Part shown: positions 47,950-61,462 of the stretch, in pieces
Layout of the letters: the number at the start of each line of letters is the position of its first letter
How positions within the stretch are numbered: the first letter of the stretch is position 1
Notes under the pieces: generated by a model
What the model saw: the letters and a program-made list of their open reading frames with translations, nothing else
Told to the model about the DNA's origin: nothing
Databases searched by the model: none
Position numbers and translations under genes: made by a program
Assembly: GCF_963921235.1 (NCBI RefSeq)
Contig: NC_086097.1
Coordinates: 117,058,001 to 117,122,000 of the forward strand
Source: Mobula hypostoma
Lineage: Eukaryota
Direction: 5' to 3'
DNA: 64,000 nucleotides

Positions 47950-49082
47950 CACTCAGTGGCCACTTTATTACATACACCTGTTCACCTGCTTGTTAATGCA
48001 AACATCTAATCAGACAATCATGTGGTAGCAACTCGATGCATAAAAACATGCAGACGTGGTCAAGAGGTTCAGTAGTTGATCAGAATGGGGAGAAATGTAA
48101 TCTAAACGACTTTGACTGTTGGTGCCAGACAGGATGGTTTGAGAATCTCAGAAGCTGCTGTCCTCCTGGGATTTGCATGCATGACCATCTAGAGTTTATA
48201 GAGAATGGTGCAATAAATGAGAAAAACAACTGCGAGTGGCCGTTCTATGGACAAAACGCCTTGTTAATGAGAGTAATCTCTCCGAGAGGACCAAAAACTT
48301 GTCGTGGTTTGGAGGCTTGCGTGCCTCAATAACCCGGAGGGTTATATTGGCTGGAGCCAGGATCTTATGCTGTGGTTCTTGGTAGGGTCACCCATGCCAA
48401 ACAGGTCAAAGGTTAGAAGCCAGCCTAAGAGTGGTCCACTGATCCTCGAGGTTCGGGGGTTCAGCTCAGGGCTAACAACACTGGCACGTCAAACAAAACT
48501 GTTATAGAAACAACAATGAAGAATCCTTCTACACTTGTGTGTGATGGTATTCCTGAGTGTCTCTCTGGGACACAAGACAAACAGTAAACCGAGAGGAAGC
48601 TGCTGACATGATGTAGGAAACCAAGAACGATGCCAGAGATGGATGACCATCATTGCTGCCCTAGATGCCAGCAGCATAAGGGGTAATAGAAACAAGAATG
48701 AGAAAGATCAGAGTAGAGACTGGTAGGTTCTTGATTGGACATGACATCAAAGGTTACAGGAGAAGGCCGGGAACTGGGGTTGAGGAGGAGAAAAAAAATG
48801 ATCAGCCATGATTGAATGGTGGAGCAGACTCCATGGACCAGATGGCCTAATTCTGCTCCTATGTCTTATGTCTCAGAATCACCAGATTGGTTCAAGCTGA
48901 CAGGAAGGTGACAGTAACTCAAATAATCATGTGTTACAACAGTGGTGTGCAGAAGAATGGCTCTGAATGCACACCATGTTGAACCTTAAAGTGGGTGGGC
49001 TACAGCAGCAGAAGACTGCAGATATCACTCAGTGGCCACATTATTAGGTACAGCAGGTACCAAATAAAGAGGCTACTGAATG
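47950..49082 (+). mobile_element. Tc1-like deleted transposon with nested RTE-type insert and CR1 tail
   Basis: TA-CACTCAGTGGCCACTTTATT...AATAAAGAGGCTACTGAATG-TA. Confidence 0.8.
48273..48696 (+). mobile_element. Bipartite RTE (Expander/Rex3-like) non-autonomous element
   Basis: TSD AATGAGA at 48266-48272 and 48697-48703; GGTAGGGTCACCCATGCCAAACAGGTC resembles RTE 5' UTRs. Confidence 0.65.
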
Positions 49083-49688
49083 TAGCTTTGGTACTTTAAC
49101 AGAAAAGAACAATACTATTTCTAAGTTACCAGTGTTTTTGAAGATTATAATTCCAGAAGCTAACAGTTTGAATTTAGATGAATAATTCTGCAGCCACTAT
49201 AAAAGGTCATTTGATATAAAGCACAGCTATGTGATTGCAATTTGCTAATGAGGCATCGTCTCATCATTTTACAGCATATGGGTCAGTGCGCTCTGGGACA
49301 TGCTCAGAGAATCCTTTGTGAATCAGGAGGCTTGTTTTGCCAATGTGCTGCCTTGCAATCCAGATGCCCCCTGTACATATGATTGATGGAACAACTAACA
49401 CGTCATCCAGAAATCTTACTCTGTGGGAAATCTAGGATTTATGACAGCTGTACATGTTATTCTAATTGCCAAACTAATGAGAATTGTGAGTGTTACACGG
49501 CATGAAGGATTCTGGCATTGGATAAGCATCTGACTCATTAATAAACATCTCCTTGGAATACATTCATAGTGTTGAAAGTAGAAAGCTGTGGAAATTCCAG
49601 TTTTATTAGGATTAGCTGCAGCTCAGTTATAACCTCCAAATCAAAAAATAGTGGGTTCAGAGACTAGACCAACAAACCTCTACTGAAG

Positions 49689-49886
49689 CAACACACATAA
49701 AAGTTGCTGGTGAACGCAGCAGGTCAGGCAGCATCTTCTCTTCTTCTTTCAGTTAGTCCTGACAAAGGGTCTCAGCCCGAAACGTCGACTGTATCTCTTC
49801 TTGTAGATGCTGCCTGGCCTGCTGCGTTCACCAGCAACTTTTATGTGTGTTGCTTGAAATTCTAGCATCTGCAGATTTCCTCATGT
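49689..49886 (+). mobile_element. Minimal Penelope-like insertion with inverted arm and hammerhead motif
   Basis: 15-bp direct repeat AAACCTCTACTGAAG at 49674-49688 and 49887-49901; 51-bp inverted arms; TAGTC-CTGACAA...GAAACGTC-GACTG. Confidence 0.85.
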
Positions 49887-51899: not shown

Positions 51900-52319
51900 A
51901 AACTTAATATTGGCATTGGATGAGGGTATGGAATTGATTTTTTTCTTGATTTCTCTTGTAGTTTAACTTTCCTATACTTGCTTGTATTTTTACATAATCA
52001 CCTACATATGTATAATTGTTTGGTGATTTCTCTAGTAATTGTGATACAGCTTCATTTGTATTCTCCTAGAAGCTTCTTAGCTTCTCACAGCAGGTGTCAA
52101 ACAACTTGAATCTGGCTATTTTATAAGTTAATTCTTATCACTGAAATGTTTTTTTTGTTGGAGCTAATTTTGTAGAAGATGAACATGATTTTATTGTTCT
52201 TTTTTGTTCATGTTTTGTTCTTATAATACTTAATCAAACAACTGTAATCAACAAGTTTTATGTCTCATTCTGGACTTCTGATGAGCCTGTGTGGATTGCA
52301 AAAACACTAGGATCCAACA
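51900..52319 (+). repeat. ERV 5' LTR (start approximate)
   Basis: 51916-52190 aligns by eye with 59681-59958; ends ...CCAACA just before the PBS. Confidence 0.75.
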
Positions 52320-52322
52320 ATT

Positions 52323-52340
52323 TGGCATCGTCAACAGGAT
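52323..52340 (+). promoter_or_regulatory. Primer-binding site, tRNA-Ser-like
   Basis: TGGCATCGTCAACAGGAT matches TGGCGTAGTCGGCAGGAT (tRNA-Ser 3' complement, recalled) at 14/18; 3 nt after the LTR CA. Confidence 0.65.
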
Positions 52341-52486
52341 GGTTGCAAAACCTTGAGGATGTGGAAGAATCCCAGATGAAGGGGAGGTCCTAGCATGATT
52401 GTAGCATAAGTTGATAGGAAGGAATACCTTTCTCCAGATTTTCCTAATCATCAGAGAAACACCTAGTTCTTGCTTCAAGACACCAT

Positions 52487-52566
52487 CAGGGGTTCCCTAC
52501 CTGGGATCCCAGGATCCCTTGCATAATGGCATTGGTCCATGGCAAAAAGAAGGTTGTAAACTCCCG
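52487..52566. mobile_element. Short decayed hAT-like MITE
   Basis: CAGGGGTTCCCTACC...GGTTGTAAACTCCCG imperfect TIRs; no clear TSD. Confidence 0.5.
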
Positions 52567-52764
52567 ATCAAAATGAAGTACAGGAGCAAAAGAAAACACT
52601 ATTCTGTTTTATTTTGCTCTGTTTTAGTGAAGTGAAACATGCACTAGGATTATAATTGTTTCATTGCACAAGTCAACTGAGTACCATTTGTGTGGTGCTT
52701 GGGTATATGTATTTAAAATATAGAACATATATACAGGACAGGACAGGCCCTTTGGCCCATAATA

Positions 52765-53630
52765 TAGAAACATAGAAACATAGAAAATAGGTGCAGGAGT
52801 AGGCCATTCGGTCCTTCGAGCCTGCACCGCCATTTATTATGATCATGGCTGATCATCCAACTCAGAACCCAGCCTTCCCTCCATACCCCCTGACCCCTGT
52901 AGCCACAAGGGCCATATCTAACTTCCTTTTAAACATAGCTAATGAACTGGCCTCAACAGTTTGCTGTGGCAGAGAATTCCACAGATTCACCACTCTCTGT
53001 GTGAAGAAGTTTTTCCTAATCTCGGTCCTAAAAGGCTTCCCCTCTATCCGCAAACTGTGACCCCTCGTTCTGGACCTCCCCAACATCGGGAACAATCTTC
53101 CCGCATCCAGCCTGTCCAATCCCTTTAGGATCTTATACGTTTCAATCAGATCCCCCCTCAATCTTCTAAATTCCAACGAGTACAAGCCCAGTTCATCCAG
53201 TCTTTCTTCATATGAAAGACCTGCCATCCCAGGAATCAATCTGGTGAACCTTCTTTGTACTCCCTCTATGGCAAAGATGTCTTTCCTCAGATTAGGGGAC
53301 CAAAACTGCACACAATACTCCAGGTGTGGTCTCACCAAGGCCTTGTACAACTGCAGTAGTACCTCCCTGCTCCTGTACTCGAATCCTCTCGCTATAAATG
53401 CCAGCATACCGTTCGCCTTTTTCACCGCCTGCTGTACCTGCATGCCCACTTTCAATGACTGGTGTATAATGACACCCAGGTCTCGTTGCACCTCCCCTTT
53501 TCCTAATCGGTCACCATTCAGATAATAATCTGTTTTCCTATTTTTGCCACCAAAGTGGATAACTTCACATTTATCCACATTAAATTGCATCTGCCATGAG
53601 TTTGCCCACTCACCCAACCTATCCAAGTCA
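52765..53630 (-). mobile_element. Young CR1 3' fragment, near-identical to 37070-37940, nested in an older CR1 tail (52718-53905)
   Basis: 254-aa open frame almost identical to the C-terminus of the 888-aa ORF. Confidence 0.95.
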
Positions 53631-53905
53631 AATCTACTCTAAGATAAATCCCTTTTACACAGGTCTCCACTTCTCTATCATCCATGTGCCTAGCTAAGGG
53701 TTTCTTAAATGCTCCTAGTCTACCTGCCTCTACCACCAGCCCTGGCAGGGTGTTCCATTCACTCACCACTCTGTATAAAAAAAAATCACCTCTGACATTC
53801 CCCTCTCTACATTTCTCCAGTCAACTTAAAATTGTGCCCTCCGCTATTAGCCATTTCTGGCCTGGGAAAAGGTCTCTGGTATCCACTCAACCTAAGCCCC
53901 TTTAA

Positions 53906-54790
53906 TCATATAACCATATAACAATTACAGCACGGAAACAGACCATCTCGGCCCTTCTAGTCCGTGCCGATCTCCTACTCTCACCTAGTCCCACCGACCT
54001 GCACTTGGTCCATAAACCTCTATTCCCTTCCTGTCCATATATCTACCCAATTTAGCTTTAAACTACAACATCGAACCTGCCTCAACCACTTCTGCTGGGA
54101 GCTCGTTCCACCCAGCTACCACTCCCTGAGTAAAGAAGTTCCCCCTCATGTTACCCCTAAACTTTTGCCCTTTAACTCTCAACTCATGTCCTCTTGTTTG
54201 AATCTCCCCCACTCTCAATGGAAAAAGCCTATCCACGTCAACTCTATCAATCCCCCTCATAATTTTAAACACCTCTATCAAGTCCCCTCTCAACCTTCTA
54301 CGCTCCAAAGAATAAAGACCTAACTTGTTCAACCTTTCTCTGTAACTTAGGAGATGAAACCCAGGCAACATTTTAGTAAACCTCCTCTGTACTCTCAATT
54401 TTATTGACACCTTTCCTATAATTTGGTGACCAGAACTGTACACAATACTCCAAATTTGGCCTTACCAATGCCTTATACAATTTCAACATTACATCCCAAC
54501 TGCTATACTCAATGCTCTCAATAAAGGCCAGCATACCAAAAGCTTTCTTCACCACCCTATCCACATGAGATTCCACCTTCAGGGAACTATGCACCATTAT
54601 TCCTAGATCCCTCTGTTCTACAGCATTCTTCAATGCCCTACCATTTACCATGTATGTCCTATTTTGATTAGTCCTACCAAAATGTAGCACCTCACATTTT
54701 TCAGCATTCAGCATCTGCCGTCTTTCAGCCCACTCTTCTAACTGGCCTAAATCTCTCTGCAAGCTTTGAAAACCTACTTCATTATCCACA
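53906..54790 (-). mobile_element. CR1 3' fragment
   Basis: GFQSLQRDLGQLEEWAE...LVRPNLEYCVQFWSP...LYSLERRRLRGDLIE. Confidence 0.9.
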
Positions 54791-54929
54791 CCACATATCT
54801 TGGTATCTTTAGTTATTCTATGATTTGAGAGTCTTGTTTGTAATTTAGTGATACGAGCAAATGCAAGTTAAGAGTTCTGCATAGGGAGTTTAAAGGAGAT
54901 TTGACACCAAATTAGAAAAACCTACCACA

Positions 54930-56460
54930 ATGAAAGAGGGAATTGAACCTCCAGTTGTTACAGTTGAATAGGTTCCAATGAAGAATTAGAATGAAATGCA
55001 TCATTAACGTTGAGTCTAAGAAATTTGAATTTTAGATGATATTAAAAAGGCATGGAGTAAGATCCAGAGAATGCCCAAGGGAAAGGGAAAACTAGGTGGA
55101 CATTACCAGTTGTATTACAGTTTGAGAAAACAGGAATGTTCTGAGTCAGAAAATTAAATATGTGGGTTGACTGAGCAAGTGCAAAATTTGACTGAACAAG
55201 TGAAAAGATAAAGGAAAACTGTGATAAATTATGAAATCAGTAAGACAGAGACAGTAAAAAGTCTGAAGAACACACCTGTGCATTAACTGAGCAAGTGAGA
55301 GAACAACAGAGGAAGAGTAATCTAATCAAAGCACGTTGCAGAGAGTGCCAGGGTAAGCTGAAGCAATATCAGAAAACACAGTAAGAACCTCAAGAGGGTG
55401 GACTTGCCAGTGACCATCCTCCGCAGGACACAACCCTTATGTCCGACAGTCCTCCAAAGCAGTGCCGCCATCTGAACTGAGAGGAATTCCAGGATGTACA
55501 TAACACAGACTCTACAACAACCTCTAGCAACTCAAGAGAGGATGGCAATGATGGCTAGCAGCCGTGTCATGACCCCAATAATGACCCAGCAAGTGAAGGC
55601 ACACGGAAATGATGATGAAAATTATGAAAGGAGACAAGTGGTATCTTATCAGCCACTTGAACAAGAAAGCAATTAGCCAATGATCCAAAGAGGTTTCACA
55701 TCATTAAAAAAATAAGAGGTTTAAAGACTTGGGCTGCACTTCAACATATTAAGACATATATTTCAGCATATACAGCCTACACAACATGCAACCTCTGGCT
55801 ATTTTGTTGTTTCCTTGGCAACTCAAACAGTTGACTCATGAAATTGTTACTGACATAGGATATGGTAAGCAAAATCTTCAAAGTGGTTGGAAGAACAAAC
55901 ACCAATACAGGCTGATTGGAGAAAAGTGGTTGATTGCAAGCAAAAGACCTTTGAAGATGTTTCTGAATATGAGGAATACTACGGAACAGTATGGTTGAGT
56001 TACTCAAGAGTTCTGGGAGTAAATGAAGACAACATGGAGGAATCTGGCTATAGTCTACTGAAGTCAACTTTTATGGATGGTTTGAAAACAGATGTTGCCA
56101 AAGTGATTAAGCTGATAGAGACAAATTGGAGTGGAGATACCATTCCATATAGTGAGTTACTGCAAATCAGTAAACAAGTGGAATAAGACATCAGAATCCA
56201 AATAAAATTGTTACAGTTAAGACTGCCATCTGTTGATCAACAATCAATGCCTGATGGTCAACAGGTAACACCCCTTCACCAAGAGGAAAAGCAAGATTAG
56301 GGTCTAACATCCTCACCACAGCAATCCTGGTTCAAATCTGAGCCATATCTCTGAGGCCAACCCCGGAAAGGAATATCTCATTATTGTGGTAAAAGAAGGC
56401 ATTGTACTAAAAACGTGTTGGGTTCAAAGACAAAATGGACAAGAGGGACAAGCTGAGTAA
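54930..56460 (+). pseudogene. gag: ERV gag remnant
   Basis: MHR-like DWRKVVDCKQKTFEDVSEYEE...FMDGLKTDV; decayed knuckle SHYCGKRRHCTKN (~56376-56414). Confidence 0.7.
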
Positions 56461-56654
56461 TGAGTTCAACTGTTTGCCCCATTAATGCCCAGAGATCCTG
56501 ACCTGACAACATGGTTTCAACAAGCATTTTTGGATGTGATGAATGTCTTTTTGCTATCCAGAAATGACTAAGCCCTTCCCTGCAGCTCTTGCCTGCCTGA
56601 AAAGAGCAAAAACCAGGTGGATAATGTGTTAACTCACTGTTTGGAAATGACTGT

Positions 56655-58650
56655 GCTGAATTCTTATTGGATATTGGATTGACAATAGATTACAGGATTG
56701 TTAATCAATGTTCCAACAAGTTAACTACTCTAGTGGCTGATGCACTGCAGCCATCACACAAATGGTTTACCATTACTGATATTAAGAATAAATTCTGATC
56801 TGTACCACTCATGCCTGAATGTCATTGGTGGTTAGCTTTTACAGTTAATGGACAACAATACCAGCGGATGAGGCTACCACAAGGGCTCCACTACAGTTCC
56901 ACTGTCTACCACAAGGTTCCATGACAACACCTAAGGGGATATAGCAGCTATTGATTCAACTATCATCCAGCATATAGATGGTGCCTTGATTGCATCTGAC
57001 ACTGCAGACCAACACGAACAAGATATGCTTTATTTTCTTGATTATTCATCCTCAAAGAATCACAAAGCAAATTTGGGCAGAGTGGCAACAAGAAGAAGTG
57101 ATTTAATTGGGACTGTAAATTCCCTCAGGCAAACTGTAAATCACGGAGGATCGCGCAAAGACTGTCAAATCAGTACAACCACCCGCAACAGTTCAGCATC
57201 TCCAAGCATTTTGCCAGTCTGTGTTGCTACAACAGAGCATGGGTCAACTCATATACTGAAACCGCACAACCACACAAAACTCTACTGAAGGGCAGCAAGT
57301 ACTCTGATGACACTATGATTCTTAATAAAGAATAGTCGGAAATGATTCAGACTCTAAAAACAACATTATGCACCGCACCTGCATTAGGAATGCCAGACAC
57401 AGGTGGGTCAATAAAGAAGATAGCTATATAATAGCACTCCTGACTGAAGAACATGGAGACCAACAACATTCGGACTGGCTGTTACTCAACCAAATTGGCT
57501 AATGTAACACTAGGATCGAATGGGCTTCCCATTGTCGACACCGTGCAGAACCATCAGGACAAGTGGAACAAATGAATGGGATCATCAAATAACAGCTGAC
57601 CAAGTATCATAAAGAGAGTGTACCATGGCCAGTGGCGCTTCCAATGGTCTTACGCACCATCAGAAAAACCAAAAAGAAGAAAACTAAATTAAGTCCATTC
57701 GGGGTGGTAACAGGGCGAACCCATGCCATGACCTGAAGACATTGATATCAGAAAACCAAAGGATGAATGTCTGTGGAGTAAAATGACAACTTAACTCTTT
57801 CTGAAGTCCAAGCATCTGGGTCTATATACTTGCTAGTGGGTAGTATTTATTAATGACTAAATATCTGTCGGTCACTTTGAGAGTATTTTTTTCATAGTGT
57901 CTGCATTCAAGCTTATTGCTGATGTATGTGACATTAACGTTCTTTTGTAAGTCCAAAGGAATGTTGTTTGCTATGAGATAATGGGGAGTGACCATTAGAG
58001 CATCTAATTAATTTATGAGCACAGGAGGCATTTGAAAAAAGACAGGCTATGTGAGACAAAAGACGAAAAAGTGCATTTGTTTCTGGGTCTCTCTGCATTT
58101 GTGAAACTCATATTTATTGGGCTGCTTTTCCCAGTTTTATCGGACTCCAACCAAGGACTGGAAATAACAATCAGTGCCAAGGTTTCATGAGTGAGAACAG
58201 CAAAATTCAAGTGGTGATTAAGCATCATGAGCCCTAAAATCTTTGTGATTTGATATGTAGTATTTTGTGTCATTTCTTTCTGCTTTCATCTTTATGATAA
58301 TAAGTTAGACTTGAGTTGCTTTGTTGTTCTTGTACACCTATTACCACATTTTCTGGACACTCCAATGGTTTGGGTCTGATCAACCCAGCCTTTACAGGCT
58401 GAAAAACTTATTTTGGCAGAGTTTGGTTAACTATCGTGTGGAACTATCCCAAGCTGTTCAGTCTGCTTCTCAATAGGTTTCTGCAGCTTGGAGTGATTCA
58501 TCAGAAGGGTGGTTCCTGGTGAGTGGGTCCGGATCCAGAAACCACATTCGGAGCCACTAGGAGCTTGGTTGGAAGGACGTTGTCAAGTGTCGTTGGTTAC
58601 CAACTCATCAGTAAAAGTAGAAGGCAAAAGCAAGTGGATGCTTTCTAGCT
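56655..58650 (+). pseudogene. pol: ERV pro-pol remnant (PR/RT/IN with large deletions)
   Basis: FLLDIG|LTIDYR; WFTITDIKNKF*SVPL; AFTVNGQQYQRMRLPQGLHYS; IQHIDG; LCTAPALGMPD; SGQVEQMNGIIK; WPVALPMVL; LSPFGVVTGR; PGEWVRI...LEGRCQVSLVTNSSVKVEGKSKW. Confidence 0.9.
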
Positions 58651-59079
58651 ACTAGAAGTAAGCTAAGGTGGTGGCTGATGAAAGCAAGCTCTGAGATTAA
58701 TGCATTAGTAATCTCTGACTCAGTGTCTACACTGCTGGGCGATAGTGAGCAAATCATAACCAGCCAGAAGACGTTAAACAAACTCATAACTACGGGACAC
58801 AAAGTTCAAGATCAAAGGTCAAAGTGCATATTTCAAAGTATGTATACTATATACATATATATGTATACTTATCTCCTTAGAGGCAGCCACAAAACAAAGA
58901 AACCCAATTGAAGCCATTTTTTAAAAAGACCATTAAACACTCAATGTGTAGAGAAAAAGAAAGCAAACTGTCCAAACAGTAAAAGTAAGCAACTAGCTTT
59001 CAAAACTGAAGTTCATGAGTCCACAGACACCGACACAGAATTCATTCAAATGTTGCTTGTTGTTGTATTTCTTCTGGTC

Positions 59080-59468
59080 TCGTCTCATTACAAATGTTGC
59101 TGCGGCTTTAGGAAGGCTAAACAAAGACACTACTACTGCCTTACAAAAAGTAACAATGGAGATAATTGCAATGTATAAGATGGTTCTCCAAAATTATATG
59201 ACAGTAACCTCTCTTAGCAGTTAAGGGGGGCATCATGTGCAGTTAAAGAGTGTTGTACTTGATATCTGATGAATTGGATTATAGACTGATCATATTCAGA
59301 AAGGGACAGCTAAGATACAACAATCTGATGGATGAAATGTCTTTGATTGAATCAGATCAAAGCCTGGAAGAGCTGGGCTTACTTGTTGTTATGAGTTATA
59401 CTATTTGCCTTGATGTGCCTTATCATAATTTGCATCTTAATTATTTATATAACAGCTATCATCAGTAG
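59080..59468 (+). pseudogene. env: ERV env transmembrane subunit remnant (gamma-type)
   Basis: Heptad LGRLNKDTTTALQKVTMEII, ISD-like MVLQNYM, then GG..CAVKECCT, and a hydrophobic span VILFALMCLIIICILIIYI. Confidence 0.8.
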
Positions 59469-59571
59469 CCCTTGCACCTACACATAGTGTACCTATTCCT
59501 AAGAACAAGCAGTCTGATTATGACATCATTCTATTAATATCCTATGATGTTTTTTTCTAAGTCGGGGTGAA

Positions 59572-59960
59572 TTTTTGTGTTTGTTTTTTAGGTATTGCAG
59601 GTACCACAATTTTGCCTGATTCTGAATTTTCAGATGTAATAATTCTAAATGTGTGATTTAGAATTAATGAAGAGTGGATATTGGATTATGGTGTTGAATT
59701 GTTACTTTTCTTGTAGATTAACTTTCCTATATCTGCTTGTATTTTTATATAATCACACATATACGTGTATTTTTTTCAGTGAATTTTACAGTTATTGTTG
59801 TAGAGCTGCTTCCATATTTTTCTTAAAACATGTTCATGTTTCTGCAGCAAGTGTCACACCACTTGAATTTGGCTAGTTTATATATTAATTCTGATCATTG
59901 AAATATTGTAATTTTTTTGTTAGTCGGAGCAAGTTTTTGAAGAAGATGACTGTGATTTCT
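59572..59960 (+). repeat. ERV 3' LTR (partial)
   Basis: Follows PPT-like AAGTCGGGGTGAA (~59559-59571); homologous to the 5' LTR. Confidence 0.7.
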
Positions 59961-60834
59961 TGGTCTCTGATGTTACGCTCAATCCAATGATGCCACAATT
60001 TATGTACCAATCTTGTGTATGGTATATTATCAAATGCTTTTCAAAAATCTGAATACATTGCTTCTACCAGTTCTGCCTTTTCCACCAGTTGTCTTTATTT
60101 ACCATGAACTCTATTAGCTGAGACAAGCACTTAATATTTACAATTATATTCAAATCGTGATTTTCTATCTCATATTAGCATATCTATTTGAAAGGTTATA
60201 ACATACACCTAAATGATCCAAATGATGTGTGATTCCCTAAATTGAAAATTATTTCCCTATTTGAATATTAATTTTACATTAGCTGCTTTCCAAACCATTG
60301 AAAATGTTCAAGACCCTAAAGACTTTGGGAGGATCACTACTATGCTACATCTGTATTTGAAGCCAACTTCTTAGGAAGCTGAGGATTAGCCATCAGGTCC
60401 GAGGAATTTATCAGCCTTTCATTCCTCTGATTTTTCCATTACCCAAGTAGACTATTTTATCTGCCTCACTCTTATTGGATCCATAGTTCTTCAGAATATT
60501 CAGCACGTTCTTTATGAGTGATTTATTATAAAGAATGGTTTATTTCTTATTCCTTGTCCTGCCTCCAAAGGCTTGCATTATTTTTACAGATCCATAGAAC
60601 CTCAACTGCTTTACCCTTTGTATTTCTTGCTACTTCATTTACACTTCTATCTTACCTGCTCCCTATTTCTAAAAGATCAACATGGATTATTTAGAGCAAC
60701 TGAATTGACTGTGTTGTGTCTTCTGTTGTTTGCCAGTCTTTGTTTATGTACAGTTTTTTGGTGAAATTCTATGGCATTTTTTCATGTAAATGCCTAAAAG
60801 AAAATAACTTCAAGGCAGTAGATGGTAACATATA

Positions 60835-61462
60835 CCCTCAGTGGCCGCCTTATCAGTTACAAGAGTGGAACCTGATGTGGCCTTCTGCTCTGTAGGTTCA
60901 ATGTGTTCAGCATTCAGAGATGTTCTTTTGCACACCACGTTGTAACGTGTGGTTGTTTGAGTTACAGTCTACTTCCTGTTAGTTTGAACCAGTCTGGCCA
61001 TTTTCCTCTGACTTCTGTCATTCTGAGTCCTGAAGAAAGTTCTCAGCCTGAAACGTCAACTGTTTACTCTTTTCCATAGATGTTGCCTGACCTTCTGAGT
61101 TCCTCCAGCATTTTGTGTGTGCCTTTCAGTAACAAGGTGTTTTCACCCACAGAACTGCTGCTCACTGGATGCTTTTTTTTTGATTTTCACACCACTCTCT
61201 GTAAACTCTAGAGACTGTTGTGTGTAAAAATCCCAGCAGATCAGCAGTTTCTGAGATACTCAGACACAATGATCATTCCACAGTCAAAGACAATTAGATC
61301 ACATTTCTTGCCCATTCTGATTCTTGGTCTGAACAACAACTGAACCTCTTCACCATGTCTGCATGCTTTTATGCTTTGAGCTGCAGCCACATGATTAGCT
61401 GATTAGGTATTTGCATCAACGAGCAGGTGTACATGTGTCACTAATAAAGTGGCCACAGAGTG
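60835..61462 (-). mobile_element. Tc1-like deleted transposon with inserted Penelope tail (61021-61122)
   Basis: TA-flanked CAGTGGCC/GGCCACAGAGTG TIRs; GAGTC-CTGAAGA...GAAACGTC hammerhead-like motif inside. Confidence 0.8.

Follow-up and report, generated by a model that had tools for sequence, protein, structure and literature searches.

Background

Several described endogenous retroviruses (ERVs) of fish resemble the element reported here, an old provirus on the forward strand of a 64,000-nucleotide stretch of the Mobula hypostoma genome (NCBI RefSeq assembly GCF_963921235.1, contig NC_086097.1, positions 117,058,001 to 117,122,000), hereafter 'the window'. Lineage I of the elephant-shark ERVs (CmiERV), which Han 2015 (PMC4422223) groups with snakehead retrovirus (SnRV), shares with the window provirus family a primer-binding site (PBS) for tRNA-Ser, the reverse transcriptase (RT) motifs LTIDYR, NGFWS and LPQGFHNSPT and, in the transmembrane (TM) subunit of Env, LQNRMALD with a CX6CC motif. 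The mix of features that a first, sequence-only reading of the window had considered unusual is therefore already present in that lineage. CmiERV lineage I differs in its unrelated 830-bp long terminal repeat (LTR) and, by eye, in its thumb and RNase H motifs; its LTR divergence is 0.033 compared with 0.27 in the window. SnRV itself shares LTIDYR, DISNGFWS and YVDD.

A second set of relatives, the nearest in our searches, consists of bony-fish ERV Pols that form a group we call 'clade A'. By eye, its RT motifs are carried by le_oc_ERV2 (gar), cy_ca_ERV4 (carp) and ga_mo_ERV4 (cod) in Xu 2018; in S2 Fig of that paper the clade A tips follow SnRV and Ca_mi_ERV1 within the Clade Huo block, in a run of ray-finned fish. 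In Wang & Han 2023, clade A RTs occur, again by eye, among intact, polymorphic and currently invading ERVs (Mamb.ERVi.1, Eluc.ERVi.2 and Oste.ERVi.1a), and most such elements fall outside the ICTV genera. The published members seen have ray-finned fish hosts and some are intact and polymorphic, whereas the family described here, which nests among them, is old and decayed. According to Blanco-Melo 2024, cartilaginous-fish ERV RTs belong mostly to clade III, and jumps between bony and cartilaginous fish have already been described in general (Xu 2018).

With members in both published sets, the lineage is published, though unnamed, and is not the undescribed one that the sequence-only reading had suggested. 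What appears to be new is a clade A family in a host that genome size and repeat types suggest to be a cartilaginous fish, plus its mode of spread. Our literature search, with most subscription journals and Repbase outside its scope and the skate and shark entries le_er_ERV1, 2 and 4 and rh_ty_ERV1 and 4 represented by their starts only, returned no description of the family. We conclude that the window very probably holds a deleted, fixed and dead provirus of this published fish lineage, whose family is likely to have multiplied long ago, mostly as defective, helper-dependent copies. A functional analogue is the mouse intracisternal A-particle (IAP) form IΔ1 (PMC6466679), which has an internal gag-pol deletion with an in-frame fusion and is non-autonomous yet abundant. 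Mouse IAP is, however, class II and active, whereas the mechanism proposed here is reconstructed from fossils.

The window provirus

The provirus is real and its parts lie on the + strand in the order previously proposed: LTR, PBS, gag, protease (PR) stub, RT, tether, integrase (IN), env TM, polypurine tract (PPT) and 3' LTR (Table 1). The parts listed in the sequence-only reading are thus present, but much between them is lost. The PR motif FLLDIG adjoins LTIDYR directly, so that little of PR remains and the N-terminus of RT is lost; most of IN, including its N-terminal half, is deleted together with RNase H, the tether-IN join being out of frame; and approximately 700 nt, most of the surface subunit (SU), are missing. 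CWxC-like SU remnants survive in L036, L041 and L045 (L-numbers denote loci; those of the window provirus family are called siblings).

Table 1. Provirus parts and later insertions in the window
Feature	Position	Strand	Evidence or remarks
5' LTR	51914..52319	+	~406 bp, ends CCAACA; high-copy family with many solo LTRs
PBS, tRNA-Ser(AGA), decayed	52323..52340	+	14/18 bases against tRNA 3' end plus CCA
Leader	52341..52712	+	Matches post-PBS sequence of L045 and L082
CR1-type LINE 3' fragments	52765..54807	-	Later insertions outside the provirus; 42-51% identity to CR1-like RT parts of P0114
gag remnant: N-terminal part, capsid with segment resembling the major homology region (MHR) from 55914, and one decayed zinc knuckle near 56379	54900..56430	+	tblastn, siblings
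PR active-site stub FLLDIG	56661..56678	+	In-frame join to RT; ~520 nt of fuller copies missing
RT from LTIDYR and tether start, pseudogene	56679..57515	+	6 frameshifts, several stops
IN core, C-terminal part	57515..57755	+	Joined straight to tether; P0003 939-1018, 53%
Dispersed repeat in IN, ~640 bp	57753..58398		Later insertion; 829 candidates, 40 scored
IN C-terminal domain	58420..58640	+	P0003 1027-1103, 53%; MLVIN_C weak, E 0.018
SINE-like repeat, very high-copy	58803..59018		Later insertion at SU deletion site; summed contig depth 7,000-32,000 in bin
env TM remnant: heptad region, immunosuppressive-domain (ISD)-like VLQN at 59183, cysteine motif, hydrophobic anchor	59041..59470	+	
PPT, decayed	59669..59678	+	Sequence; region matches siblings
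3' LTR, 3' end lost	59679..59974	+	LTR match; contigs of organisms B, C, E and J span the LTR-flank junction

The MHR-knuckle region of gag matches a zebrafish (Danio) Gag-Pol, P0186 (tblastn, E 1.8e-7), and zinc knuckles also occur in L050, L118 and L131. RT is 52% identical to residues 176-472 of the intact fish Pol P0003 over 283 columns and matches RVT_1 (E 5.7e-8, above the cut-off), the sole Pfam domain in the window to pass its cut-off. A Pfam search of the window IN core, gag and the ORFs of the long interspersed elements (LINEs) gave no match, nor did one with the TM piece, although this was read in a wrong frame.

The sequence-only reading had assigned a gamma-type Env with a CX6CC motif. 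Six residues do separate the cysteines in sibling TMs (for example, L053, L041 and L036), but the window copy itself reads CAVKECC (59236-59256), with four (CX4CC). The best PDB match of the L053 TM is syncytin-1 (E 0.0012). Judged by its sequence, the family Env is of the gamma type, with an ISD and CX6CC TM.

The second LTR follows the PPT, as had been noted, but it stops near 59974. A 294-bp stretch near 59680 is a second copy of the 5' LTR start, the pair being identical at 219 of 282 positions (Kimura two-parameter distance, K2P, 0.27). A search of the following 24 kb did not reveal the remainder of the 3' LTR; with this end lost, the target-site duplication of this copy is unreadable. 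The genome holds 2060 candidate members of the LTR family, and the 40 scored are 71-81% identical. Around nine family LTRs the flanking 4-mers agree at 22 of 36 bases, compared with 30-33% for lengths of 3, 5 and 6 bp, so that the duplication made by the family is likely to be 4 bp.

The PBS, compared with the genome's own tRNA-Ser(AGA), begins 3 nt past the LTR end; both strands of the window together contain only two tRNA-Ser PBS-like 18-mers. The siblings L038 and L045 have a tRNA-Ser PBS in the same place, 3' of the LTR. Of the 99 places in the whole genome that match the tRNA-Ser PBS pattern, 19 fall within a tandem array of approximately 40-bp units on a small contig (G000:C138:76795-77741).

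A single element, old and fixed

Siblings were sought in the source genome (G000, 3.48 Gb), and 20 of their loci, ten kb each, were used to check co-linearity. LTR, RT, IN, TM and PPT are co-linear in four of these. Since siblings carry the same co-linear LTR-pol-env set, the parts in the window are one element, and env and LTRs belong together, as the sequence-only reading required. The RNase H region is retained in siblings.

Parts of the stretch were found in 20 sequencing runs with ten organism labels. None of the runs listed as containing it is an RNA dataset, which is uninformative on expression. Across four organisms (B, C, E and J), the eight pieces listed per run show divergences from the window of 2.1, 6.5, 9.1 and 8.8%. 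Junctions specific to the window are bridged as well: that between PR and RT by B and C, that between tether and IN by B and E, and that between the 3' LTR and its flank by all four. The PR-RT junction occurs in none of 60 paralogs, namely the RT-bearing family copies that were chosen from genome match lists and fetched for the deletion count described below. Because paralogs are much less alike (68-75% identical to the window) and window-specific junctions are bridged, the copies in the four organisms are orthologs. The insertion is old, fixed and common to four other organisms.

The claim that the provirus is ancient is borne out by these orthologs and by the LTR divergence, which is about three times the deepest split among the four organisms and agrees with the end branches of the family (median 0.13). 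A K2P of 0.267 corresponds to 61 million years (Myr) at the mammalian rate of 2.2e-9, and the shark rate that Han 2015 assumes would require 607 Myr, which is impossible; absolute dating therefore fails. For a host that evolves at or below the mammalian rate, 61 Myr is a floor. A measured rate for the epaulette shark is given per generation (PMC10587355).

Phylogenetic placement

The closest protein matches are Pols of bony-fish ERVs, in clusters from carp, Coilia, Alosa, cod, Astyanax and Danio. The window RT is 52% and sibling RTs are 52-60% identical to clade A database members. There was no named virus among the 12 matches of the protein search, nor did the viral-contig scans give one, and ESM Atlas matches were to generic RT clusters only.

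We constructed an RT-core tree (55 rows, 197 columns) and an RT+tether tree (42 rows, 324 columns). In the former, six copies from the source genome form a clade (support 100/99) nested in clade A (98/98); in the latter they are again nested in clade A (100/99). The class I rows, which include walleye epidermal hyperplasia virus 2 (WEHV-2), form a clade without the family copies (100/99), and Gypsy rows fall outside in both trees. Clade A is also held in trees of RNase H (93/91) and IN (100/100) from intact relatives. Approximately unbiased (AU) tests were carried out on 33 rows, leaving out P0020 (mis-sliced) and eight redundant rows. They rejected a grouping with WEHV-2, an epsilonretrovirus (p-AU 0.03), and with the ERV-L/S-like rows (p-AU 0.004), these being bird and turtle proxies labelled by motif, with HERV-S itself outside the set. 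The sequence-only reading was right in placing the element outside Gypsy and outside the epsilon and gamma clades, but its ERV-S-like alternative is not supported. Clade A joins class I in the free trees (86/89 in RT-core, 97/93 in RT+tether and 93/83 in the AU set), which thus favour it as sister to gamma- plus epsilonretroviruses.

In a rival placement, clade A genuinely belongs to the SnRV-like group (Clade Huo), and the element is then one more SnRV-related shark or ray ERV similar to CmiERV lineage I. We regard this as a serious possibility, though somewhat short of probable. Joining clade A to group B, a proxy labelled SnRV-like by eye, is not rejected (p-AU 0.22), and both the tip order in Xu 2018 and the PBS, RT motifs and TM layout of CmiERV lineage I point in the same direction. 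The free trees, however, prefer clade A with class I. Moreover, RT identity between SnRV and Eluc.ERVi.2, a member of clade A, is only about 45% (approximate hand count on a trimmed alignment), and by eye SnRV carries the thumb motifs of group B.

Single motifs do not decide the matter. DYR, previously taken as a sign of class III, occurs in Gypsy rows in our motif survey. The source genome also contains a less decayed, epsilon-like ERV family with HDLR in place of it (L137-L142, in G000 C62, C9, C1, C52, C66 and C12; 31-40% identity to P0003), which has the same tRNA-Ser PBS in all six loci fetched, HDLR being read in four. Neither DYR nor the Ser PBS is therefore diagnostic.

Shared deletions and mode of spread

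Among the 60 RT-bearing copies, 32 have a junction that links the gag N-terminal region directly to RT, at LTVDYR or slightly beyond it. It exists in two forms, G1 (17 copies) and G2 (15 copies); 16 further copies keep the 5' side of RT and 12 were unclassified. At G1 both parents carry a 6-nt match, GGAGAC, as expected of a template jump. The reading frame is kept in all four G1 junctions printed and in seven of the ten G2 junctions tested. A tether-to-RNase H fusion, in frame in four distinct copies, occurs in both G1 and G2 copies, and such mixed sets of deletions suggest recombination between co-packaged RNAs. SU deletions are also shared and fall into three classes (the window and L055; L036, L041 and L045; L043 and L048); of the 13 siblings that have an env match, 6 are included. 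In the family DNA tree, from which eight short copies were left out, the window and L055 form a subfamily (100/99), and the tree is otherwise star-like (pairwise identity 77-80%).

Copies without capsid, protease and part of RT, or without SU, would be unable to replicate alone, so that the many separate insertions of such copies imply that the missing functions were supplied in trans. The ancestral virus would have primed on tRNA-Ser, made Pol by readthrough of the gag stop (gag and pol lie in one frame across a single stop in the relatives L057 and L059), carried a tether, RNase H and IN, produced 4-bp target duplications and entered cells by means of a gamma-type Env. Reverse transcriptase switching templates at short matches may then have given deleted genomes that kept LTRs, PBS and PPT, and these could have been packaged and copied by the proteins of complete helper copies.

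A further proposal is that the in-frame state of the shared deletions was itself selected, a Gag-Pol fusion aiding the packaging of deleted RNA by analogy with mouse IAP IΔ1, for which PMC6466679 provides the precedent. G1, G2, the tether-RNase H fusion and the window PR-RT join are all in frame. In addition, a bony-fish-type metagenome contig (L056:2690-7676) carries an open 1049-aa fusion from Gag to RT thumb, RNase H and IN together with an intact 427-aa Env, at a coverage of 45; in that sample the fuller form, L057, reaches 2.8. Against this, there are only four or five such junctions, read by eye with frame-dependent patterns that under-count out-of-frame cases; the L056 fusion may be an assembly artefact; and the window tether-IN join is out of frame. 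Selection for frame is accordingly a possible explanation that we think less likely to be right than wrong.

L056 is a clade A relative that differs in its longer TM cysteine spacing and in having no usual LQNR. Its PBS is presumably tRNA-Phe-like, unlike the tRNA-Ser PBS of the family.

The window (56678/56679) and up to three other copies (L100, L109 and L043) change sequence at nearly the same RT position as G1, so that the site just before LTVDYR may be a hot spot for breakpoints. Splicing was considered as its cause and dropped, as there is no pyrimidine tract and short matches explain G1.

Combined reading and its weight

Taken together, these results can be combined in a tentative and, as a whole, rather unlikely reading. 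Clade A would be an unnamed sister of the gamma- and epsilonretroviruses as a whole, with RT motifs retained from the ancestor. The family would be its oldest dated fossil and its first cartilaginous-fish member, nested among bony-fish viruses, implying a cross-class jump at least ~60 million years ago. Throughout the clade, in-frame Gag-Pol deletion forms would replicate better than their helpers, a strategy like that of IAP IΔ1 but of independent origin in fish.

An insertion common to several species sets a lower bound on the age of a retrovirus clade that in bony fish is still entering genomes. The family is also a further likely case of transfer between bony fish and cartilaginous fish. 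Should clade A prove to be the sister of class I, it would help to date the change from DYR to DLR in RT. The shared in-frame deletions make the idea of an IΔ1-type cis-preference testable by counts in fish genomes.

A number of points weigh against our interpretation. The protein trees use a single model (LG+G4) and no mixture model; their groups are named by motif and host, WEHV-2 is the sole named virus, and sequences of SnRV, foamy viruses, lokiretroviruses and HERV-S are not among the rows. The trees put clade A nearer to class I than to the ERV-L/S-like rows, and membership of clade A in Clade Huo follows the tip order in the text of a published figure, not visible branches. In the family DNA tree the G1 and G2 copies are unresolved as clades, a single origin of each deletion being inferred from identical junctions only. 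Two pairs (L040/L044 and L098/L110) look like segmental duplicates. Finally, the window PR-RT junction, unique among the 60 copies, and the out-of-frame tether-IN join may have arisen after insertion.

Less probable origins

A chimera that combines a class III RT with a class I RNase H, integrase or Env is quite improbable. The RT core stretch does match foamy PR-RT first (E 3e-7, compared with 4e-4 for murine leukaemia virus, MLV) while an intact Pol matches MLV best (444 bits, compared with 210 for foamy), and replacements of RNase H and IN are known (PMC7947760). Clade A is, however, monophyletic in the RT, RNase H and IN trees, so that any swap would be older than the whole clade, and DYR and NGFW look like retained ancestral states.

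Intact relatives carry a tether, a second RNase H and MLVIN_C, and siblings keep RNase H; the family is for this reason a retrovirus and not Gypsy. Despite the DYR motif and the fact that RVT_1 alone passes the Pfam cut-off in the window, a Gypsy element, a lokiretrovirus or unrelated insertions lying side by side can be given hardly any weight in view of the outlying Gypsy rows, the gamma-type TM and the co-linear siblings. Foamy viruses (Clade Tu) have no Gag zinc knuckle and have a foamy Env. The knuckle, the gamma-type TM and the far better match of the intact Pol to MLV speak against a foamy virus, with no foamy row in the trees. Lokiretroviruses are marked by a paramyxovirus-F-like Env (PMC7947760). 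Neither the sibling TM nor the L056 Env, which matches TLV_coat (E 4e-12), has a match to PF00523 (Mononegavirales F), and this, with the gamma-type TM and its best PDB match to syncytin, speaks against a lokiretrovirus.

Later insertions and other observations

The LINE fragments between leader and gag, which we take to be CR1 from their motifs, have further copies elsewhere in the window. The ~640-bp repeat in IN is likely to be a solo LTR of another element: L147 contains it as a same-strand pair 7 kb apart, although no retroviral or Gypsy Pol was found between the pair among the best 15 matches.

Two inverted structures lie outside the provirus. At 49686-49855 there is a 51-nt inverted repeat (98% complementary, 68 nt apart), likely to be two opposed ends of short interspersed elements (SINEs). 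Opposed copies of another repeat, at 48000-48986 and 60894-61412, flank the provirus region approximately 12-13 kb apart, with arms 77-86% complementary.

Two further observations concern clade A in general. L058 (539-3100) has an 857-aa in-frame fusion of a host-like coiled-coil ORF with a clade A RNase H-integrase, for which a chimeric transcript, gene capture and an assembly chimera are candidate readings. The clade A Pol cluster P0018 has 3937 member sequences, pointing to a large recent expansion in one or more fish genomes.

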